This document shows positions 4 through 59,427 of a DNA stretch of 64,000 nt, piece by piece (position 1 is the first letter of the stretch; each line of letters starts with the position of its first letter). The notes below the pieces were generated by a model. That model worked only from the letters and a program-made list of their open reading frames with translations, had not been told where the DNA came from and did not search any database. The DNA lies in NCBI GenBank assembly GCA_049319825.1, contig JBMORT010000002.1, positions 204,072 to 268,071 of the forward strand, given 5' to 3'. The stretch is from Patescibacteria group bacterium (lineage in GTDB: Bacteria > Patescibacteriota > Patescibacteriia > UBA11705 > DATKZF01). The translations under genes were made by a program, and so were the position numbers.

Positions 4-465
4 TTGGATAATCTGCGCGACTATCCGCTGCCGGAAAAGCACTGTGAAATCACGCGCATCAATTTCACGGCCGCGGGCATCCCGATGACGGTATCCAGCG
101 TCGAAAACAGCATGTACGTCGAAACCGAGGTGAGGGATGTCGTCGCCTTCAGACAGTATGCCAGTGATGCGCTATCCTGGTGGAAAATCAGTTCGGGAAA
201 AATTGAAGATCTCGGGTCGCGGCTGTCCATGAAAGTCGCGACGCGGCAAAAATACGATTTTGCCATGCTCCGGCAGGCCATGTTCGATTACTACGGCAGG
301 TACTTCGACGATGTCAGCGCCACGGTCACTTGCGGCAATTTGCCCGAATGGATCGTGACGGAATATCCCGTCGAGTGGGAACGGGTGATTCGCGAGGCGC
401 CGATTCGCGAAGATCTCGCGCCGCCGGAACCAACCGCTCGTCCGGGGAAAAGGCGCCCACGATAA
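4..465 (+). CDS. hypothetical protein (possibly 5' truncated by window edge)
   Basis: 153-aa ORF running from the window start region; no recognisable motif; followed by hairpin terminator. Confidence 0.35.
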   Translation: MDNLRDYPLPEKHCEITRINFTAAGIPMTVSSVENSMYVETEVRDVVAFRQYASDALSWWKISSGKIEDLGSRLSMKVATRQKYDFAMLRQAMFDYYGRYFDDVSATVTCGNLPEWIVTEYPVEWERVIREAPIREDLAPPEPTARPGKRRPR

Positions 466-6134: not shown

Positions 6135-6284
6135 AGATTTAATTAATTTTCACCAATTAGTAATTTGGTAAAAAATCGTATTTTGGGATAGTTTAACGTT
6201 ATATAAAGGATTATAATGTAAACTTCGCGGCTTGTCAACGGCCGAGTTTTCGTTTCTTTTTTAAAAAATGCTATAATATAACCA

Positions 6285-22364: not shown

Positions 22365-22427
22365 TTTATTCTCCCTTCGTCTGCAGTTCAAAAAATTATA
22401 TTTTAAATAATGGATTTTGTCAATTAA

Positions 22428-22771: not shown

Positions 22772-23317
22772 CTACTTCGTCGAGGACGAGCGCTTGCTCT
22801 CGGCGAGCGCCTCGGGCTCCTGCTCCAAGATATTGATCTTGGTGATGGCCTCGAAGGCGGGCTCGAGCTGCTTGAGCAGGGAGGCCGCCACTTCTCGGCC
22901 CGTGCCCTGCATGCAGTATTCGGCCACCTTGGCCACGGTGTTCGAGTTCGGGATGAATCCGTACTGAGTGGAGAGGTAGTGGACCGCGGTGGCGACGACC
23001 AGCGGTTCGAGCATGCGGCCGAGCTCGGTGTCGAAGTAACCGGGGTAGCTCTTGCCGAGCGCGCGTCGGACAATGCCGATGAGCAAATGGCAGGCCTCCT
23101 CGGACCCGGCGATCTTGGCGCCGTGCTTGAGGTTGTCCGTGACGGCCTGGAAAGTCTTGTTCGTCTTGTCGGTCATGGGGGGTCCTCCTTGGGTGGTTGA
23201 GCTGATGGCGGTATCAGCCCGTTTAGTTTCGGTCTGGACTTCGCTGTCAGGGTCTGGATCGCTCGCGGATTCTGGAATGCCCAGAACTTGCGCGATCTTC
23301 TTTTTCACGTTGGACAT
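22772..23317 (-). CDS. hypothetical protein on GC-rich (foreign-composition) island
   Basis: GC clearly ~60% versus ~42% flanks; strong AGGAGG RBS 6 nt before ATG (MSNVKKK); no family recognised. Confidence 0.55.
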   Translation of the reverse strand: MSNVKKKIAQVLGIPESASDPDPDSEVQTETKRADTAISSTTQGGPPMTDKTNKTFQAVTDNLKHGAKIAGSEEACHLLIGIVRRALGKSYPGYFDTELGRMLEPLVVATAVHYLSTQYGFIPNSNTVAKVAEYCMQGTGREVAASLLKQLEPAFEAITKINILEQEPEALAESKRSSSTK

Positions 23318-23421
23318 GCTGACCTCCTTTCGCTTCATGCCCCCAGCTTGATGGGCATAAAAACCGGCGATTTAACTCAGTAGACTCCTTCTCCACATGT
23401 TTTTGTTTGCTCGAGTTATCC

Positions 23422-24102
23422 TTAACCTTTTTGCATTTCCAAGTTTTCTACCAGAAGCATTTCAACAAACCTATCGATTACATCCGCTCTTGATTCAGTA
23501 TCTTCGCCGAGAGCCCTCAGCTCGGAAATCACGTCCGCATCGGTGATTTCTGATTCCTCGAACCAATCAGACTTTTTCCATTTCTCGTCAGCCGCCTGGC
23601 CCATGAAATCCAAATTGTTGCATGTCGGACAGGCGGCAAAAATGGATGGCCCGAGTCTTAGCACGACTCTATGGGAATCAAAATGACAGCAATTGGCCGT
23701 GAAATGCAAAGGATTTTCAATGCCCGATTCGATTTCCATATTAATTTCTTTAAAGACATTTCCCCAATCTGACATTTTTCTGAGTTTGGAATCAAGTTTA
23801 TCCTCGGAGACAGTCCATTTATTCACAAAGTTTTCGTCATCTCTTTGAACGTCTTCCAATTCATAGATCAGACCGCATGCAGGGCAATACGTGTAAAACA
23901 TTTTTGCGAATTCAAGAATCACCCAGTATGATGTCTGGGGATCATTACATTTTTGGCTTCGGCAGCGCCGAAAAGTAAAGAGCTTCACATCCTTGGGCAT
24001 ACTTGCCTTGAATTTTCTTTCGCGGGTTTTATGGAAGAATGCACAACGATCCCTGTCATGATTGTATGATTTGGCATATAGTGTTCCGAATGGCTCTGTC
24101 AT
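23422..24102 (-). CDS. hypothetical protein with two tandem CxxC-type zinc-ribbon-like halves
   Basis: internal duplication each with C..C and CP(A/T)C motifs. Confidence 0.5.
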   Translation of the reverse strand: MTEPFGTLYAKSYNHDRDRCAFFHKTRERKFKASMPKDVKLFTFRRCRSQKCNDPQTSYWVILEFAKMFYTYCPACGLIYELEDVQRDDENFVNKWTVSEDKLDSKLRKMSDWGNVFKEINMEIESGIENPLHFTANCCHFDSHRVVLRLGPSIFAACPTCNNLDFMGQAADEKWKKSDWFEESEITDADVISELRALGEDTESRADVIDRFVEMLLVENLEMQKG

Positions 24103-24285: not shown

Positions 24286-24314
24286 TTGACAGATATTTAT
24301 CAATTTGCTATAAT
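24286..24314 (+). promoter_or_regulatory. sigma70-type promoter TTGACA-17-TATAAT, probably leaderless transcript
   Basis: perfect hexamers; -10 ends 6 nt before ATG at 24321. Confidence 0.6.
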
Positions 24315-24320
24315 AAAAGC

Positions 24321-25133
24321 ATGGAAACCAAAGCGGAACAAATCAAACTAATCAGCGAGCTGAGAAAAGCCGGATTAAAGCAAAAAGAAGCGGAAATTTA
24401 TGCCGCGCTTTTGGAATTGGGCGGCGCTTATCCTTCAAAAATAGCAGAATACACGAAATTAAACCGAAGCACTGTATATAAAATTTTGGAGGAGTTATCT
24501 ATCAAAGGTTTAGTATCAGAGGTTCAAAAGGGGAAAAAGCTATATTATCAGATTGAAAAGCCGGATAAATTGGTTCGCTTCGCAAAAGAGCAAATTAAAT
24601 TAGCGGAAAACAGATTGGAAAACGCGGAAAAAATATTGCCTGATATTGAAGGTTTATTTACTCTAACGCCGAATAAACCCAAAGTCAGTTTTTATGAAGA
24701 ACTTGACGGAGTTTTAAAAGTGTATGCGGATCATGTTGATGTCAAGGAATCATATGAACAGCTGGCATTTTCAAACACAGCCGGGGTCATTGAATTCATG
24801 CCATTAAAATTTAGAGAAGATTATGTAAAGAAAAAAGAGAAAATTTCCATCCCTTCCAGAGGAATTGTTCCTGACACGGAAAAGGATATTGATTATAACA
24901 AAACCGTATATAGAAATGTTAATAAAGGAATATGGCCGAAGTTGCGCTGGATACCGGCTAAAATGTTTCCCTATAAAGGTGAAATTACCATTTATGAAAA
25001 TAATAAAGTCTCTTTGGTTAATTTCAGCGAGCCGACGATGATTGGGGTAATTATTGAAGATAAAGACATCCACGACATGATGGCCATGATTTTCGAGCTA
25101 GCCTGGGCCGGAGCGAAGGAATTTGGAAATTAA
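24321..25133 (+). CDS. TrmB-family winged-helix transcriptional regulator
   Basis: N-terminal TrmB-type wHTH (KEAEIYAALLELGGAYPSKIAEYTKLNRSTVYKILEEL..KGLV). Confidence 0.7.
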   Translation: METKAEQIKLISELRKAGLKQKEAEIYAALLELGGAYPSKIAEYTKLNRSTVYKILEELSIKGLVSEVQKGKKLYYQIEKPDKLVRFAKEQIKLAENRLENAEKILPDIEGLFTLTPNKPKVSFYEELDGVLKVYADHVDVKESYEQLAFSNTAGVIEFMPLKFREDYVKKKEKISIPSRGIVPDTEKDIDYNKTVYRNVNKGIWPKLRWIPAKMFPYKGEITIYENNKVSLVNFSEPTMIGVIIEDKDIHDMMAMIFELAWAGAKEFGN

Positions 25134-43893: not shown

Positions 43894-44042
43894 ATATGAT
43901 TACGTGAAACATTATACTACAATTAGCAAAAATTGTCAAAAAGGAACGGATATATTATAATGAAATGGAGTTTATGAATCGGATATCAGGCGGGATATTG
44001 GCCGGAAGTAGATGCTTATTTAATTACCACCAATTATACAAT

Positions 44043-45808: not shown

Positions 45809-46369
45809 ATGAAAAAATTTAAATTTCTAATCGCTCTATTAATTGTTCCTTTGTTAATTTCAGCCTGCAGCTGCCAAAAGCAGCCGACAGATAGAGATCA
45901 CGTTGAGCTGCTCGTGCCCGATGATGTCAAGGGCAAGGTAAAGGACTGGGTCGTTTATACCAACCCGGCGTTTCGCTACGAGCTGCGCTCTCCAGAAAAT
46001 TGGGAAATATTGGATCTGAATAAAACCGGTGAGGATGTGTATTTTTATGAAAAAGGGAAAAGCATCACCGACGATTATAAGGGGGAGCTCAGGATTCTGG
46101 GATTTTCCAATTGGCTGGAAAAACTGTCCATTGACGAATTTATAAAATCAAAGGCGCCGACCAATTATTACGCCATCAGTGCCGGAGAAGATCGACAGGA
46201 AATTCAATTCAGGGACTTTTACGCCATACGTTTTGATAATGTGGAGATCGCCGAAAATCAGCTGATCGACGTATTGGCGATAGATGGCCGAGACAGGATA
46301 ATTTTGATAGAGCTTCGCGGTACAAAAAAAGATATTGAAACGATTCTGGGCAGCATGTATTTTTATTAA
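45809..46369 (+). CDS. putative lipoprotein
   Basis: signal peptide with LISAC lipobox. Confidence 0.5.
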   Translation: MKKFKFLIALLIVPLLISACSCQKQPTDRDHVELLVPDDVKGKVKDWVVYTNPAFRYELRSPENWEILDLNKTGEDVYFYEKGKSITDDYKGELRILGFSNWLEKLSIDEFIKSKAPTNYYAISAGEDRQEIQFRDFYAIRFDNVEIAENQLIDVLAIDGRDRIILIELRGTKKDIETILGSMYFY

Positions 46370-46438
46370 TGGTCAATAATTAAAGATTAAAGCAAATATC
46401 GAGCGGTGCTTTCGCCGCGCAAAAAAATTAAAAATAAT

Positions 46439-46470
46439 AAGACCGAGAGTGTTTTCTCGGTCTTTTTTTT
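46439..46470. terminator. bidirectional terminator AAGACCGAGA-gtgtt-TTCTCGGTCTT + T9
   Basis: 10-bp stem between convergent genes. Confidence 0.6.
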
Positions 46471-47162
46471 TAGTTTGAATAGTTGAAGACCCGGATTTGG
46501 GTCCTCGCCTTGGCCTTTACCAGCAGTCTGGTGGCCATGGGATTGACCCACATCGGGTCGGTCTTGCCGTTCCAGACGAAGATTCGTCCGGCTTTGGCAA
46601 CGGGCAGTTCCGCCCAGTTGCCGATGTTTTTTTCGTCCGGCACCATCACCATGATGGGCGCGGTGTAGTCGAAGATCTTGGCCAGCACCGGCTTGCCCAT
46701 CCTGATTTCGTAGATGGGGCCGGGCTCGATGTCGGCCTCGAAATCGGGCCGCCAGGCCATGGCCACGGCCGCCGGGCGGTCATTGTCCGTGATCGGACTG
46801 CTGATGCTCAAACCGAACACGCGGTTGAGCATCCCCGGCAGCGCGTAGTTTAGAACCACCAGCGCGCCAATGACGATGGCGATGAATACCACCATCGCCT
46901 TGGCCCAGAACCAGTCTCTGGGCTTTGGCTTTTTGGCCTCGGGCTTTTTGGCCGTTTTCTTGGCATCGGCCTCGGACTTGTCGTCCGTTTTTTGGGTCTG
47001 CGCGTCCGCCTTCGGCCAGGCGCCCAGACACACGAAAAGTCCTGCCACTGCGGCTCCGATCACTGCCCAGACCGCGTAGCCCGGGATGACCTTGAGCCCG
47101 ATGGCCGAGCCGATCAGCGCGACCAGCAGTCCGAACAGAATTGCCATTACCTTCCTTTTCAT
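46470..47162 (-). CDS. membrane protein co-transcribed with SPFH protein (possible NfeD-like partner), GC-rich
   Basis: 3 TM plus Lys-rich linker plus C-terminal soluble domain; GC ~58%. Confidence 0.5.
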   Translation of the reverse strand: MKRKVMAILFGLLVALIGSAIGLKVIPGYAVWAVIGAAVAGLFVCLGAWPKADAQTQKTDDKSEADAKKTAKKPEAKKPKPRDWFWAKAMVVFIAIVIGALVVLNYALPGMLNRVFGLSISSPITDNDRPAAVAMAWRPDFEADIEPGPIYEIRMGKPVLAKIFDYTAPIMVMVPDEKNIGNWAELPVAKAGRIFVWNGKTDPMWVNPMATRLLVKAKARTQIRVFNYSN

Positions 47163-47172
47163 TAAAAACCTC

Positions 47173-48189
47173 CTAGAGGTTGAAGAGTTTCGCGGGATCG
47201 ATCAGGTTCACATTGCCCTGTCCGCCCTTGCCCCAGGCGGCCAGCGCCTGCCACTTGAGCTGCTCAAGCTTGAATCGAGCCAGCTCTGCGCCGGTGACTC
47301 CCAGTTTCCCGAGAGCCTCGGCCTCCTTTTCGAGCGCCTTGACCTGCGCCTGGCCTTCGAGCGCGCTCAGCTCTTCTTTACGGCGAGCGACCTCGATGCT
47401 GGCCTGAATGTCGACCAGCGCAGCCTGACGCTTCTGATGCTCGACCACGACCGCCTTGAGGCTTTCCTCGACCTCGGGGTCGAGGTTGACGTCCTCGATC
47501 AGCACATCAAGGATCTCGATGCCCCACTGATTCTGGATGTCGATCTCATCGGTGGTCGGGTTCAGCAGTCCCTCCCTCATCAGGCGGCTGTTTTCGAGCC
47601 AGTCGATGGCCAGCAGGTTCTCGAACTCGACGTTGATGTCGAGCACGATCTTTTGGAACAACCTGCGGATCAGGTCGTCCACCAGTTCCCGGGCCTTGGT
47701 TTCTTCGGCTCCGCCAATCAGATTTTGCTTGACCTGCAGAAATCTTTCGGCGTTCCGAATGAGGTTCCCCTTCGTCTGGAACCTCAGGTTGAGCGAGATC
47801 TCTTTGGCCACCACCTTGACCGGAGTCTTGATGGCTTTGCCGTCGCTGCCGACCACCGTGTACTGGAGATCGGCTTTGACATCTCGCACATTTAGCGAGA
47901 ATAATTCCGTGGACTGGACGATGCGCTCTTCCCACCAGGGGAAGTAGATCCTCCAGCCCGGGTGTTTCACCGCGATCAGGCCACCGAAACTGACGATAAA
48001 CCAGATTTCGGTGGGTTTGACCATCTCGACCCTGATCATGTTCATGACCAGGATCGCGGCCGCGATGATCGTGCTGCCGATGATCAGCATGTCGCTGACA
48101 TCGATCGGCCGCATGACCCACAGCAAGATCATCTCGCACAAAACAAACAGCCAGAGCAGGGCGAATTTCAACATGCTCGAATAATTCAT
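47173..48189 (-). CDS. SPFH/band-7 (stomatin/flotillin-like) family protein, GC-rich
   Basis: N-terminal TM then SPFH core then long coiled coil; start at second ATG (48189) preceded by GGGAGG. Confidence 0.75.
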   Translation of the reverse strand: MNYSSMLKFALLWLFVLCEMILLWVMRPIDVSDMLIIGSTIIAAAILVMNMIRVEMVKPTEIWFIVSFGGLIAVKHPGWRIYFPWWEERIVQSTELFSLNVRDVKADLQYTVVGSDGKAIKTPVKVVAKEISLNLRFQTKGNLIRNAERFLQVKQNLIGGAEETKARELVDDLIRRLFQKIVLDINVEFENLLAIDWLENSRLMREGLLNPTTDEIDIQNQWGIEILDVLIEDVNLDPEVEESLKAVVVEHQKRQAALVDIQASIEVARRKEELSALEGQAQVKALEKEAEALGKLGVTGAELARFKLEQLKWQALAAWGKGGQGNVNLIDPAKLFNL

Positions 48190-48231
48190 CTGATTCCTCC
48201 CGATTGGTTTAATTTCATCCAAATTCATATT

Positions 48232-48260
48232 ATTATATCATATTTTTTCATTTTTGTCAA
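48232..48260 (-). promoter_or_regulatory. sigma70 promoter TTGACA-17-TATAAT driving GC-rich SPFH operon
   Basis: perfect hexamers, AT-rich host-like context. Confidence 0.6.
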
Positions 48261-48324: not shown

Positions 48325-48825
48325 TTATTGCTGCAATGCTCTAAGAACGAATGAAACCAAGGTATAGCTGAGGAAAATAACAGCCAAACCGATGGCCGCG
48401 TATAGCATGGCCTTCTTGCCTTTGTCAATCCGGCCTTCACTGCCGCCAGAAAACATCCACAGCACGCCGCCGTAGATGAATACGGCCAGAGCGATCGATC
48501 CGGAAACGCCGATAACCGATTTGATGATCCGGCCAATCACCACGTTGATGTCGGTTTGCTCCCCCGGTGTTTTGGCCAGAAAATTTGGTAAAATAATGTC
48601 CGCCGGCGTAGTAGATTGAGCGCCGCCCGGAGCGGGCGGTGTAACTTCCAGCGTGGCGGTGCCGCCCGGAACCTCGCCGGTCTGCGTGCCGCCGCCTTCA
48701 CCGCCCGTTTGAGTGCCGCCGGCGTCCGGCAGAGTTTGAGTCGCCAAAGCCAATGGCGCTGATGCGATCACCAGAGAAAATAGCAAAATTGTCGGAATTA
48801 ATAAATGGATTGTTTTGGTTTTCAT
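48325..48825 (-). CDS. TrbC/VirB2-like pilin-family protein
   Basis: signal peptide, G/T/P-rich repeats, two C-terminal TM helices with GGSEGRIDKGKK loop; internal Met start at 48825. Confidence 0.6.
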   Translation of the reverse strand: MKTKTIHLLIPTILLFSLVIASAPLALATQTLPDAGGTQTGGEGGGTQTGEVPGGTATLEVTPPAPGGAQSTTPADIILPNFLAKTPGEQTDINVVIGRIIKSVIGVSGSIALAVFIYGGVLWMFSGGSEGRIDKGKKAMLYAAIGLAVIFLSYTLVSFVLRALQQ

Positions 48826-48827
48826 AT

Positions 48828-50276
48828 TTATGTGCTGGGAATTATTTTTTTCCATGTTGATTTTTTAAAACTGCTGATATGCGTTTTGGCCGTTCGTGTT
48901 TTGACGAATTTAAGCCACTGGGGATTTGGACCCTTGCGGTGCTTGTCGATGATGATGTCAACGACATCGCCGTTTTTAAGCTTGGCGTCGAGCGGCACCT
49001 GCTGATCGTTAACGCTAGCGCTGCCGCATTTATTGCCGATATCCGAATGTATTTCATAGGCGAAATCAACCGGGGTGGCGCCTTCGGGCAGATCGATAAC
49101 GTCGCCTTTTGGTGTGAAAACAAAAATTCTATTTTGGAAAAAATCTATTTTGACCGTTTCTAAAAAATTTTCATCGTCTTTAATTTCTTTTTGCCATTTC
49201 GCCAACTCATCGACCCAGCCCAAATCTTCAATTTTTGTTTTTCCTCCCTTTTCTTTATATTTCCAGTGTGAGGCGATGCCGAATTCCGCTTGCTCGTGCA
49301 TCTGCGGCGTGCGAATTTGGAATTCAACCTGCTCGTGATTGTCGCCGAATACGGTGGTATGCAGCGATTGATAACCGTTCGGCTTTGGCTGGGCGATATA
49401 ATCTTTTATTCTGCCTTTAACCGGCTTCCATAAGCTGTGAATAATGCCCAGCGCCGCGTAGCAATCGGCAATATCCTTAACGATGATTCGCGCCGCCACC
49501 AAATCGTAGATGTGATTGATGTCTTTTTCGTTTTTTATCAATTTGCGGTAAAGGCTGTAATAATGCTTCGTGCGGCTGTACACGTCCAGATAGTGGACGT
49601 TATTTTCTTTCAATTTCCGTTTTAATTTATTAAGCATTGATTCCAGCGCGCGTTCTTTGATCGGCAGCCCCTTTTTTATTAAACCCTCCACCCAAATATA
49701 TTCATCGGGAAAACCGTATTTGAACGCCTCATCCTCCAGCTTGCCTTGCAATTCTCCCATGCCCAGCCGATTGGCGATCGGCGCGTAGATTTCCAGCACT
49801 TCCATGGCGATGCGTTTTTGTTTATCCGCCGGCAGCGCGTAGAGCGTTCTTAAATTGTGAAGCCGATCGGCGAATTTGATGATGATCACCCGAATGTCTT
49901 TGGCCATGGCCACGAACATTTTGCGCAAATTTTCAACATAGCGTTTCATGCCGCGGTATTTGACGGTGCCGAGCTTGGTAATGCCATCGACCATGTCGGC
50001 GACGTCAGCGCCGAAATTTTGTTTGATGTCTTCCAGCGTGTATTCGGTGTCTTCCGGAACATCATGAAGCAAGCCGGCGATTATTATATTTTGATTGACC
50101 CCAAGATCGGCGAGGTTTTGGGCGGTGGCCAGCGCGTGATCAATATAGTCGACACCGGTGGCGCGGCGCTGGCCGGCGTGCGCTGTTTTCGCAAATTCAT
50201 AAGCCAGCTCGATCAGCGCCAGATCGGCTTTGGGGTCATACTTTTTAACGGTTGTCAGCAATTTGCGAATGGTCAT
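48828..50276 (-). CDS. rel: Rel/SpoT-family (p)ppGpp synthetase/hydrolase (HD intact) with TGS domain, no ACT
   Basis: HD motif LLHDVPEDT, synthetase YQSLHTTV..RTPQMH, TGS TPKGDVIDLP.GATP.DFAY. Confidence 0.85.
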   Translation of the reverse strand: MTIRKLLTTVKKYDPKADLALIELAYEFAKTAHAGQRRATGVDYIDHALATAQNLADLGVNQNIIIAGLLHDVPEDTEYTLEDIKQNFGADVADMVDGITKLGTVKYRGMKRYVENLRKMFVAMAKDIRVIIIKFADRLHNLRTLYALPADKQKRIAMEVLEIYAPIANRLGMGELQGKLEDEAFKYGFPDEYIWVEGLIKKGLPIKERALESMLNKLKRKLKENNVHYLDVYSRTKHYYSLYRKLIKNEKDINHIYDLVAARIIVKDIADCYAALGIIHSLWKPVKGRIKDYIAQPKPNGYQSLHTTVFGDNHEQVEFQIRTPQMHEQAEFGIASHWKYKEKGGKTKIEDLGWVDELAKWQKEIKDDENFLETVKIDFFQNRIFVFTPKGDVIDLPEGATPVDFAYEIHSDIGNKCGSASVNDQQVPLDAKLKNGDVVDIIIDKHRKGPNPQWLKFVKTRTAKTHISSFKKSTWKKIIPST

Positions 50277-50283
50277 AATTATA

Positions 50284-51912
50284 TTATAGCAGATCTTTAG
50301 TTGAAGCGTATTTAGTTATCATCTTTTTGGCCAAATTTGATTTCACGAAATTCAGCCAAGCCGGATCAGGGCCTTCGGAATTGATGTCCGGAATGATTTC
50401 CACCACGTCCTCATTTTCCAGCTTGCGACTGAGCTCGGCCGGTTGATTGTTTACCAGCGCGAACTTGCAGAAATGTCCCAGATCCGAATGGATATGATAG
50501 GCAAAATCCACCGGCGTGGCCCCCTGCGGCAGGGATATAATATCGCCCTTTGGCGTGTACACGTAAATTTTTTCTTGGAATATTTTGCTCAGCTCCTCGT
50601 CCCAGATATTTTTTTGGGAAAATAGGCTGCTGGCTCGGAGTAAACGCTTGGCCCAGTCGTTTTCCACGGCCGCGCCATCTTTATAGAATAAATGAGCGGC
50701 GACGCCATATTGAGCTTGGTGATGCATGTCATGGGTTCTAATTTGAAATTCGGTCAGACGATTGCCCGGGCCGATGACTGTCGTGTGCAAAGTTTGATAG
50801 CCGTTTTCTTTCGGCGCGGCAATATAATCCTTGATTCTCTTGTGCACCGGCGGCCAGAGGCCGTGAATGATGCGCATCATCAAGTAGCATTCATCGACGG
50901 TATTAACGATGACGCGCAGTGCGAACACATCGTAAATTTCATTGAATGTTTTTTGTTTGGTTTTCATTTTTTGGTAGATGCTGTAGTAGTGCTTAAAACG
51001 GCCGTTGACTTCACAGTTGATGTTGTTCTTTTCCGCTTCTCGCTGCACGGCCTTTTTCAGTTTATTAATGTATTTATCCCTGATTTTTTTATTCTCTTTG
51101 CCGAATTTGTCGGCGATTTTTTGATATTCTTTGGGCTGCAGGATGCGGAATGCGTGATCCTCCAGCTGCCAGCGTACGCGCCAAATGCCCAGCATGTTGG
51201 CGATGGGTGCTAAAATTTCCTTGGCTTGTTTGGCCAAAAGATATTTGTCTTCAAGCGCGATTTTCTCGTCGTTGCCTAGCGAATCGAGCATCGAGGCCAT
51301 CTTGATGAAAATAACGCGAACATCTTGCGCCATTACCAACATCAGTTCTTTGATGTTGTTGTTGAAACTTTTCGTTTTATTGGCCAAGTGATTTATTTTT
51401 CTGTATTTTTTTAATATTTCCAGCGCGTGATTGCCCAGCTCCTTCTTTATCATCGGATCAAAATCATCGATTTCGTTTTCCAAATCGACATGATGGAGCA
51501 TGCTGGCGGCGATAGTGATCGCGTCAACCTTCATCGTGCTCAACAGCTGCGAAGTGTTGACTGAGTGCCAAAAAAACATTCGGTGACGTTTTTGATCCTG
51601 GCCGTTAAAATATTGATCAATGTAATCCAGCACGATTACAATTTTATAATTGTCTCTGCCAATGATTTTTTCTATTTCCGATCTTTTTTCAGGAGAGACT
51701 TGGTTGATTTTAAAAATCGCTGATGAGGCGATAAAAAAAGGAGAAGCATTGGCCATTGCCAGCTTCTCCGCCAGTATTAATTGTTTTTCGTAGGTTTCTT
51801 TGGTGATTATGTTTGCGTTTAGGCATTTTTCCAAATAATTCAAAGCTTCGCCCAATATTTCCGCATCAGGCCTATTTTTTTCGATGAATTCCTGGAGCGT
51901 TTTATTACCCAT
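50284..51912 (-). CDS. RelA-like paralog with degenerate HD domain, synthetase and TGS
   Basis: HD replaced by MLHHVDLE; synthetase YQTLHTTV..RTHDMH; TGS present. Confidence 0.8.
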   Translation of the reverse strand: MGNKTLQEFIEKNRPDAEILGEALNYLEKCLNANIITKETYEKQLILAEKLAMANASPFFIASSAIFKINQVSPEKRSEIEKIIGRDNYKIVIVLDYIDQYFNGQDQKRHRMFFWHSVNTSQLLSTMKVDAITIAASMLHHVDLENEIDDFDPMIKKELGNHALEILKKYRKINHLANKTKSFNNNIKELMLVMAQDVRVIFIKMASMLDSLGNDEKIALEDKYLLAKQAKEILAPIANMLGIWRVRWQLEDHAFRILQPKEYQKIADKFGKENKKIRDKYINKLKKAVQREAEKNNINCEVNGRFKHYYSIYQKMKTKQKTFNEIYDVFALRVIVNTVDECYLMMRIIHGLWPPVHKRIKDYIAAPKENGYQTLHTTVIGPGNRLTEFQIRTHDMHHQAQYGVAAHLFYKDGAAVENDWAKRLLRASSLFSQKNIWDEELSKIFQEKIYVYTPKGDIISLPQGATPVDFAYHIHSDLGHFCKFALVNNQPAELSRKLENEDVVEIIPDINSEGPDPAWLNFVKSNLAKKMITKYASTKDLL

Positions 51913-58831: not shown

Positions 58832-58860
58832 TTGACATTCTCCATATTTTATGATATAAT
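58832..58860 (+). promoter_or_regulatory. sigma70 promoter TTGACA-17-TATAAT with ~200-nt leader to GC-rich lipoprotein gene
   Basis: perfect consensus; second weaker promoter TTGACA-17-TAAACT at 58777..58805. Confidence 0.55.
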
Positions 58861-59073: not shown

Positions 59074-59427
59074 ATGTCCAAGTTGGTAGTTCTGGCTCTT
59101 CTGGTCGGAGTCGGTGGCTGTACGCTGAGCGCGGGTCCGCCGGTTCTCGTCAATACCCCGCACTACGCCTACCATTCGGGCGGCCTGTGCAATGACGGGT
59201 TCTACTACGACGGCTATTACTGCCGTGCGGCCCGGTTCGCCCATGTCTTCTACCGTCCACACCCCGAGTACGGCCGCGGCTACTACCACGGCTACTCGGG
59301 CCATGCCTACTACCGCCATCATCCCTACCGCCGGCCAACCGTCGTCGTCACCGATCACCAGCAGCACCGTAAAGTAAAGGTGGTCAAGGTCAAGCGGCCC
59401 CGCCATCGTCCCCATCGCTATCGCTAA
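59074..59427 (+). CDS. small Tyr/His/Arg-rich lipoprotein on GC-rich island
   Basis: GGAGG RBS, signal peptide with lipobox-like VGGC, GC ~62%. Confidence 0.5.
   Translation: MSKLVVLALLVGVGGCTLSAGPPVLVNTPHYAYHSGGLCNDGFYYDGYYCRAARFAHVFYRPHPEYGRGYYHGYSGHAYYRHHPYRRPTVVVTDHQQHRKVKVVKVKRPRHRPHRYR

Follow-up and report, generated by a model that had tools for sequence, protein, structure and literature searches.

A GC-rich, fast-diverging SPFH/partner operon at one conserved chromosomal site of a Patescibacteria clade: probably ancestral, not recently imported

Introduction

Does a gene pair whose base composition departs sharply from that of its surroundings have to be recent foreign DNA? This question is raised by a two-gene locus in a 64,000-nucleotide stretch of the genome of a Patescibacteria group bacterium (assembly GCA_049319825.1, contig JBMORT010000002.1, positions 204,072 to 268,071 of the forward strand), which we refer to as the window throughout. 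The locus encodes an SPFH (band-7) protein and a membrane protein, its partner; the two genes are called the module in the following. The initial annotation regarded them as a stomatin/NfeD-like pair of foreign composition that had been captured directly behind a consensus promoter of the host. Based on a comparison of eight genomes, we favor a different reading with moderate confidence: the module is an ancestral, probably highly expressed and fast-diverging SPFH scaffold/partner operon of one clade of Patescibacteria (candidate phyla radiation, CPR) and not a recent import, and its excess of G+C at third codon positions (GC3) is a property of the locus. This corrects a tempting inference, as odd GC content at this site does not equal recent foreign DNA.

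Results

A two-gene operon with sharp compositional borders

Both open reading frames (ORFs) are present on the minus strand in adjacent positions, spanning 46470..48189. The operon consists of the following parts (aa, amino acids; RBS, ribosome-binding site):

48260..48232, minus strand: sigma-70-type promoter, TTGACA-17 nt-TATAAT, 12/12 match, TG before the –10 box
48190..48231, minus strand: AT-rich 5′ leader of 42 nt, as read from the sequence
48196..48201, minus strand: RBS GGGAGG, 6 nt ahead of the SPFH start codon (ATG, 48189)
47173..48189, minus strand: SPFH/band-7 gene, 338 aa, Pfam PF01145
47169..47173, minus strand: partner RBS GGAGG, overlapping the SPFH stop codon TAG, 6 nt ahead of the partner ATG
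46470..47162, minus strand: gene of the partner membrane protein, 230 aa, an ORF without Pfam family
46439..46464, both strands: bidirectional intrinsic terminator, a hairpin AAGACCGAGA...TCTCGGTCTT with T-runs on both strands
47546..48139, minus strand: Arg-rich shadow ORF of 197 aa in another frame of the SPFH gene, a by-product and not a gene

Position 48189 is the likely start of the SPFH gene because the alternative ATG at 48228 sits directly after the –10 box. For the partner gene, the NCBI annotation begins at Met6, resulting in a protein of 225 aa. The overlap of the GGAGG sequence with the SPFH stop codon suggests that translation of the partner is coupled to the SPFH gene. The hairpin at 46439..46464 ends both the SPFH/partner operon and a convergent lipoprotein gene, and the terminator of the pilin gene upstream is located ahead of the module promoter.

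The perfect host-type promoter and the GGGAGG RBS described in the initial annotation were recovered as such, though the promoter is one of many: six perfect TTGACA-N16-18-TATAAT sites were observed in the window, compared with 0.02 expected.

6210..6238 (–), 22395..22423 (–), 24286..24314 (+), 43911..43939 (–), 48232..48260 (–), 58832..58860 (+): perfect consensus promoters

Consensus promoters are the norm in this genome, and that of the module is not special.

The anomalous composition and the codon shifts, also noted initially, were confirmed. GC content and GC3 are 0.573 and 0.811 for the SPFH gene and 0.599 and 0.814 for the partner gene, respectively, while the whole window has a GC content of 0.446. 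The other ORFs of the window (n = 52) show a mean GC3 of 0.506 (sd 0.068, maximum 0.603), which places both module genes at z = 4.5. Calculated over 100 nt at a time, GC jumps from 0.39 to 0.59 at ∼46500 and drops from 0.49 to 0.29 at ∼48200, and these sharp steps coincide with the start and stop codons of the module. The enriched codons are CTC/CTG, GTC, GAC, GAG, AAG, ATC, and TTC. By a synonymous-codon log-likelihood relative to the window's own usage, the module does not stand out (z ∼ –1.8 to –2.0), as the host uses its codons almost evenly; composition was judged by GC3 and two-fold codon fractions instead. Three other, unrelated orphan ORFs in the window share the codon signature of the module, which hints at a gene class and not at a single event.

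The operon occupies the same site in related genomes

In a collection of 5.8 billion protein clusters, each module protein finds only itself, both being singletons at 90% clustering. Word-indexed searches with both proteins and with a three-sequence profile returned only the queries plus one further protein, P0007. An exhaustive phmmer search with the SPFH protein against 1.84 billion representatives yielded only six matches at E <= 1e-3. Two of these, P0003 and P0007, are family members with 26–29% identity; the three other non-self matches are weak, among them a repetitive 1703-aa protein. Even the closest relative of the SPFH protein, P0003, is just 29% identical.

The JGI contig encoding P0007, L001, carries genes for a type IV secretion system (T4SS) pilin, the SPFH protein, and a 232-aa partner, followed on the opposite strand by a lipoprotein and ParB. 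Its pilin is 72% identical to the product of 48325..48855 in the window and its lipoprotein 45% identical to that of 45809..46369. The neighbors of the module in the window are:

45809..46369, plus strand: lineage-specific lipoprotein gene, convergent with the module and conserved in relatives, used as synteny anchor
48325..48855, minus strand: T4SS-type pilin gene (PF18895/TrbC family match), directly upstream of the module, second synteny anchor
48828..50276 and 50284..51912, minus strand: two tandem genes of RelA/SpoT homologues (HD, RelA_SpoT, and TGS domains) beside the pilin gene

With the lipoprotein as an unbiased anchor, two scans led to one locus from a GTDB genome (L003) and seven metagenome loci (L004–L010). 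As L006 is identical to L003, both were counted as one locus, L003/L006. The eight genomes compared here are therefore the window and seven module loci, that is, L001, L003/L006, L005, L007, L008, L009, and L010.

All seven module loci show the order ParA > ParB > lipoprotein > < partner < SPFH < pilin < RelA/SpoT. The module was found at this site in seven of the eight recovered loci, which is every locus whose sequence reaches the site: in L004, the closest flank-relative, the contig stops 212 bp past the lipoprotein gene. The lipoprotein is 30–59% identical in the eight related loci (the seven with module and L004) and always adjoins the module where sequence is available; the C-terminal part of the pilin is 61–72% identical in L001 and L003. 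The only detectable relatives of both module proteins belong to this same locus, between the pilin gene and the lipoprotein/ParB/ParA block. The initial annotation had held that nearest relatives of the SPFH protein among close CPR relatives would speak against its own proposal, and this is largely what we observe, since the only detectable relatives stand at the identical syntenic locus.

Conservation extends to the regulatory ends of the operon. L001, L003, and L007 share the conserved promoter motif ggctaaaTTGACAaaa...atgaTATAAT, a –35 element TTGACA(a)aa is present in all eight loci, and the terminator hairpin is 84–88% identical in L003 and L007. Judged by these sequences, promoter and terminator are orthologous across the loci. 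In the relatives, the SPFH and partner genes overlap as ATGA or TAATG, and translational coupling is predicted in all loci. The 5′ leader is not conserved and comprises 68–71 nt in the relatives vs. 42 nt in the window. When profiles of the two deepest subclades are compared, the SPFH proteins prove to be full-length homologues (hhalign 98.8%, E = 8e-17, 287 columns); for the partners, the match across the deepest split (hhalign 93.8%) covers only the second transmembrane (TM) segment, the linker, and the third TM segment. Taken together, conserved synteny, promoter, terminator, coupling, and homology indicate that the operon, including its promoter, predates the divergence of these genomes, among which ParB identity falls to 55%.

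These observations contradict the capture of a foreign pair behind the promoter. According to this scenario, a stomatin/NfeD-like pair from a GC-rich donor would have been placed recently behind a pre-existing host promoter, and GC3 would be the signature of the donor. The strong compositional anomaly with its sharp edges at the ends of the coding sequences (CDS), the singleton status of both proteins at 90% clustering, and a loss of DNA similarity to relatives exactly from the terminator to the –10 box would all fit such a capture. Nevertheless, the same operon with orthologous promoter and terminator is found at the same site in seven related assemblies, and the same relative GC3 excess occurs in all loci, scaling with host GC3 (see below). 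No donor-like relative was detected among the 1.84 billion representatives, nor did tblastn reveal anything similar in phage records, queried with both proteins, or in plasmid records, queried with the SPFH protein only. Our searches identified neither a donor lineage nor a mobility gene or flanking repeat for the module; its neighbors include no integrase or transposase, and the repeats present are short and at chance level, with no insertion scars. A search of the window against Rfam returned three tRNAs only, and the tRNA genes nearest to the module lie at 41.9–43.5 kb. Compared with a genomic island, the module thus shows anomalous composition but is not absent from related sites and is accompanied by no mobility genes, tRNA target, or repeats. 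We regard a recent capture as quite improbable.

The sharp GC boundaries could also result from an assembly chimera or contamination, in which a GC-rich segment was mis-joined from another organism. However, two independently assembled contigs, one at NCBI from a metagenome-assembled genome (384,691 bp) and one from Logan (28,779 bp), contain the same gene string, syntenic modules are present in seven further assemblies, and the boundaries coincide with start and stop codons and functional signals. The chance of such an artifact is therefore negligible.

The GC3 excess is a persistent property of the locus

Both module genes lie above every flanking gene in GC3 in all eight genomes. The offsets range from +0.09 to +0.31, or 0.4–1.4 logit units, and GC3 of the module rises with that of the flanks (r = 0.82, p = 0.014, eight loci). 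At two-fold codons, C/(C+T) is higher in the module in all loci (0.40–0.83 vs. 0.17–0.40). For G/(A+G), an increase is seen in the window, L005, L006, and L007; it is weak in L009 and absent from L008 and L010. The excess is mostly found at third positions, with GC at first positions increased by ∼0.05 and at second positions by 0–0.1. Since the flanking proteins are 55–86% identical between genomes, synonymous sites are saturated, and an inherited donor signature could neither have persisted nor scale with the host. The same relative excess in every genome, scaling with the host, therefore indicates that the composition is a long-standing property of the locus and not a donor signature. The GC3 excess is a persistent, locus-specific offset that is added to the base composition of the host.

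An overlapping or antisense gene as the cause of the high GC3 was rejected, as no alternative frame is conserved across the relatives. The frame of the shadow ORF at 47546..48139 is somewhat longer than in synonymous shuffles (p ∼0.01–0.02, one of five frames). It is closed in L001, L003, L007, L009, and L010, and no relative conserves it, for which reason we agree with the initial view that this ORF is a by-product of the GC richness.

The most likely cause of the offset is expression-linked selection on synonymous sites, because the preference of C over T is the most consistent part of the signal; the conserved consensus promoter and the strong RBSs also favor this explanation. Recombination-associated GC bias may add to the excess. 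Alternatively, the excess could stem not from codon selection but from GC-biased gene conversion, acting at a hotspot of recombination that diversifying selection keeps active. Recombining bacterial genes tend toward higher GC3 (PMC4450053), recombinational replacement and extreme divergence are both seen at the locus (see below), and G- and C-ending codons are both increased in the window and L005. This alternative is difficult to reconcile with the 3′ ends of the lipoprotein and pilin genes, the required homology arms, which have the lowest GC3 of their loci, or with L008 and L010, where only C/T and not A/G codons are shifted. Moreover, the rate of synonymous substitution (dS) is not elevated in the close pair L003/L007. 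We consider gene conversion in place of codon selection conceivable, though rather unlikely.

The coding block diverges rapidly between conserved ends

For every pair of genomes with a ParB identity of <= 80%, the module proteins are only 21–33% identical, while ParB ranges from 55 to 80% in these pairs. In the close pair L003/L007, the identities are 95% for ParB, 91% for the SPFH protein, and 81% for the partner. Here, dS is 0.48–0.57 for the module vs. 0.58–0.79 for the flanks, and the ratio of nonsynonymous to synonymous rates (dN/dS) is 0.11 for the SPFH gene and 0.19 for the partner gene. These values point to functional genes under purifying selection that are vertically inherited on this time scale. 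The divergence is not clock-like: the SPFH protein and the lipoprotein are 91% vs. 87% identical in the close pair and 25–33% vs. 47–57% in deeper comparisons.

A second pair, L001/L005, revealed a mosaic. The DNA of both loci is 76% identical as far as the SPFH start codon and once more from partner codon ∼86 onward, with no detectable DNA similarity across the SPFH CDS and the first ∼85 partner codons. At the protein level, identity is 34–37% for the SPFH protein, 41% for partner residues 1–60, and 79% for residues 91–232. The simplest reading of these sequences is that recombination replaced the block with a divergent allele from the same family. The block comprises the SPFH protein and the hairpin/loop part of the partner, which would fit co-adapted interacting surfaces. 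Between the window and all its relatives, DNA similarity ends at the terminator (46422–46475) and resumes at the –10 box (48226/48231). Coding cassettes may thus occasionally be swapped between conserved regulatory ends, within the same family.

A related explanation concerns this genome in particular: the coding block of the window may recently have been replaced by homologous recombination from a GC-richer member of the clade. The pair L001/L005 demonstrates that block replacement is possible, and a swap would explain why the window has the largest GC3 excess (logit offset of 1.44 vs. 0.41–1.21). In addition, the SPFH protein of the window lacks an insertion of ∼80–100 aa present in its nearest flank-relatives, and the SPFH protein departs from clock-like divergence when measured against the lipoprotein. 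On the other hand, the offset of L005 is nearly equal (+0.29), no GC-rich clade member with a similar allele was found (P0003 as the best relative being no closer than 29%), and the three unrelated window ORFs with the same codon signature argue for a gene class at the level of the genome. A recent swap in the window is therefore a doubtful, if possible, explanation.

Hypervariability between conserved core genes, odd composition, membrane association, and a partner domain predicted to be surface-exposed would also be compatible with a fast-evolving defence, abortive-infection, or phage-interaction module at a conserved hotspot. Neither protein matches PADLOC at E <= 0.1, a generic match to phrog_200 (E = 1e-7) was the only one in PHROGs, and Pfam and NCBIfam revealed no nuclease, NTPase, or other effector domain. 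The locus always shows the same two-gene architecture instead of varied systems, and the close pair is under ordinary purifying selection, so that a role of this kind appears improbable.

A divergent SPFH protein and a partner with NfeD-like organization

The identities of an SPFH protein and a membrane partner, as initially proposed, hold. The SPFH protein matches Pfam Band_7 (PF01145) over residues 56–269 with E = 1.7e-13 and 51.5 bits vs. a cut-off of 23.6; the same model is matched by four of the eight family members at E <= 0.01. It is composed of N-terminal TM helices, the SPFH domain (56–269), and an Ala/Glu/Lys-rich helical tail. By hydropathy, the window protein has two TM segments (7–25 and 34–52), the seven relatives one. 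Homologues are 311–436 aa long. A family profile weakly matches PH stomatin (E = 1e-3), QmcA (E = 0.013), and HflC (E = 0.02), and in these weak matches the Ala/Glu/Lys/Gln-rich segment at ∼245–310 is paired with the helical part of HflC and QmcA. Band_7_1 reached only E = 0.021, below its cut-off, and the only match to a curated NCBIfam subfamily was TIGR01932 (hflC) with 12 bits vs. a cut-off of 134.4. A phmmer search of the protein against the PDB gave nothing at E <= 1. By sequence, the protein represents a very divergent, formerly unrecognized SPFH subfamily. Its N-terminus is short and uncharged or acidic, with basic residues following the anchor, a charge pattern that suggests a cytoplasmic location of the SPFH domain and the helical tail.

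Several SPFH homologues contain an extra charged helical insertion of ∼80–100 aa within the SPFH region, with the conserved motif Q-x-G-C-x-x-E-R. It is missing from the SPFH proteins of the window and L008–L010. The insertion-bearing homologues are:

L001, 588..1802
L003, 8357..9613
L005, 2244..3554
L007, 7362..8621
P0003

In the partner, a hairpin of TM1 and TM2 is followed by a low-complexity linker rich in Lys, by TM3, and by a C-terminal domain of ∼110 aa that is predicted to be all-beta. Hydropathy and charge counts gave three TM segments in all eight homologues, which are 221–247 aa long and have a low-complexity TM2-TM3 loop of 25–39 aa that is Lys-rich in most members. AF2 predicts three helices and seven strands at low confidence, with beta structure only after TM3. 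The positive-inside rule places the Lys-rich loop in the cytoplasm and the C-terminal beta domain outside the cell, where it is predicted to be surface-exposed.

NfeD proteins likewise combine three hydrophobic stretches with an all-beta domain and their genes share an operon with that of an SPFH protein (PMC2636767), and in this respect the initial designation of the partner as NfeD-like is appropriate. At the sequence level, it is not: the NfeD family PF01957 is absent from all eight homologues at E <= 10, and a profile of the eight sequences found no NfeD chain among all PDB sequences. The partner is NfeD-like in organization but not a member of the NfeD family by sequence. Searches of Pfam, NCBIfam, PADLOC, and PDB assigned it to no family; the homologue in L001 matches at E = 7e-8 across the C-terminal 95 aa. 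Based on these searches, the partners constitute a family without a database model.

Comparison with known SPFH systems and variable loci

QmcA-YbbJ of E. coli and PH1511-PH1510 of Pyrococcus, which represent the SPFH1/stomatin-NfeD type, resemble the module as two-gene operons of an anchored SPFH protein and a small partner that has three hydrophobic stretches ahead of its all-beta C-terminal domain (PMC2636767). They share a probable cytoplasmic SPFH domain with N-terminal anchor, the module profile weakly matches PH stomatin and QmcA, and by analogy a membrane-enclosing cage may be common to both. In contrast, NfeD proteins comprise 140–150 aa, whereas the module partner has 221–247 aa, no detectable NfeD signal in its sequence, and a low-complexity loop of 25–39 aa. 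Its beta domain, with about seven predicted strands, is predicted outside the cell, unlike NfeD, which is located beside the SPFH domain. Furthermore, the module SPFH protein matches no curated NCBIfam subfamily, diverges extremely fast, and shows the GC3 excess.

In the flotillin-NfeD2 pairs (YuaG/FloT-YuaF of B. subtilis and YqiK-YqiJ of E. coli), as in the module, the SPFH domain is followed by a long helical region rich in Ala and Glu, and their operon partner is also extremely divergent: YuaF and PH0471 share 21% identity, and the homology of YuaF to NfeD was shown by structure only (PMC2636767). The module differs in that the SPFH gene comes first and that a flotillin-specific match is missing (Band_7_1, E = 0.021). 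HflK/HflC belong to the SPFH superfamily as well, and the module profile weakly matches HflC (E = 0.02). However, HflK and HflC are a paralogous pair, whereas the module contains a single SPFH gene, and TIGR01932 scores just 12 bits vs. a cut-off of 134. In addition, the charge pattern of the module protein suggests a cytoplasmic instead of an extracytoplasmic SPFH domain, and no ftsH gene is adjacent.

With respect to its evolution, the module can be compared to replacement-type hypervariable loci between core genes. Such loci encode, for example, flagellin, pilin, or surface polysaccharides and are usually AT-richer than the genome. Common features are the conserved flanks and regulatory ends around a coding block that has diverged beyond DNA recognition, allelic replacement, and a product predicted to be partly surface-exposed. 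In contrast to these loci, the module is GC-richer in every genome, and its content is always the same two-gene architecture.

Proposed function and weighing of the evidence

We propose that one or two TM helices at the N-terminus hold the SPFH protein in the membrane, with domain and tail in the cytoplasm, and that the 3-TM partner, coupled in translation, would have its Lys-rich loop inside and its beta-rich C-terminal domain directed outward. Solved SPFH complexes are cages of 22 to 44 subunits by which membrane is confined (PMC12478178; 10.1101/2025.04.21.649849). By analogy with HflK/C, QmcA-YbbJ, and flotillin, the SPFH protein most likely forms a large membrane ring or cage as well, which would fence off a membrane patch holding the partner. 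The conserved consensus promoter, the strong RBSs, and the conserved terminator probably result in strong expression. Evolution of the coding block is very fast and includes occasional replacement by a divergent allele via homologous recombination.

Several points weigh against an ancestral, highly expressed operon of this kind. High expression is read from promoter and RBS strength only, and the codon reference was the bulk of the window ORFs. Highly expressed proteins usually evolve slowly, which the SPFH/partner pair does not. The neighboring pilin gene, presumably encoding an abundant protein, has a low GC3 in L003 and L005 (0.23–0.26). The increase of G-ending codons in the window and L005 looks more like a general push toward GC than pure translational selection, and a contribution of GC-biased gene conversion predicts a GC spill-over to the flanks, of which none is seen. 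Finally, the topology was deduced from a crude positive-inside count, and the partner C-terminal domains of L008–L010 cannot be confidently aligned to the others.

The divergent SPFH subfamily and its partner family occupy one fixed chromosomal site throughout a CPR clade. What requires explanation is a pattern in which the coding block is 21–33% identical, its neighbors 55–86%, promoter and terminator are nearly unchanged, and GC3 lies 0.1–0.3 above the host. A selective origin of the GC3 offset would mark a class of probably abundant envelope proteins in uncultivable organisms; a conversion-driven origin would make the locus a clean natural system in which to test GC-biased gene conversion in bacteria.

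More speculatively, the clade may keep a variable cassette framed by promoter and terminator. It would provide an abundant SPFH cage below the membrane, coupled to a partner whose outward beta domain is driven to diversify by phages or by the episymbiont's host cell, with alleles exchanged by homologous recombination via the conserved ends and a selective or conversion force holding synonymous sites GC-rich in spite of saturating divergence. We put this forward as a tentative idea of low probability. If true, antigenic variation of flagellin or the S-layer would have an SPFH-based counterpart in this cassette, which would also be a natural case of a locus-specific GC3 equilibrium in tiny-genome bacteria, and the GC3-rich orphan ORFs 22772..23338 and 59074..59427 would belong to the same class.

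Additional features of the window and related loci

ORF 22772..23338 on the minus strand encodes 188 aa and shows a GC content of 0.61, a GC3 of 0.83 (z = 4.8), and a module-like codon signature. It is located directly behind gene 23422..24102, ends at a hairpin terminator, and has no match in Pfam, PADLOC, or PHROG; it may fall into the same GC3-rich gene class as the module. The perfect promoter at 58832..58860 (+) is followed by a leader of ∼210 nt without Rfam match and the ORF 59074..59427, which has a GC3 of 0.75. Its 117-aa product matches no family and combines a lipoprotein-like signal peptide with a Tyr/His/Arg/Pro-rich body. The window-edge ORF 85..465 (+, 126 aa, GC3 0.68) weakly matches RT_UG5_small of PADLOC (E = 0.002), which is probably noise.

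In L009 (8594..12469, minus strand) and L010 (8438..12382, minus strand), the product of the gene upstream of the module is 1291–1314 aa long and has a T4SS-pilin-like C-terminus, while the pilin of the window and the nearer relatives has just 176–334 aa. The RelA/SpoT homologues 48828..50276 and 50284..51912 are conserved in L003 at 80% and 58% identity, respectively. L003 (CAYPKD010000005.1) is fully syntenic with the window, and its ParA, ParB, and RelA are 77–86% identical; the record is titled "uncultured Gammaproteobacteria bacterium", a label that is probably wrong.

At the junction between the lipoprotein and partner genes (∼46400 in the window, ∼7600 in L003), gene orientation switches convergently. 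The rise of the cumulative GC skew comes to a halt here in the window, and in L003 the skew has its peak at this point, so that the junction looks terminus-like despite the adjacent parA and parB genes.

Two further promoter sites are of note. Within the SPFH gene, an antisense promoter-like site (TTGACA-18-AATAAT, 11/12 match) at 47876..47905 (+) could give rise to an antisense transcript. The perfect promoter at 24286..24314 (+) ends 6 nt ahead of the ATG of a TrmB-family regulator (24321..25133), and this short gap suggests a leaderless mRNA.

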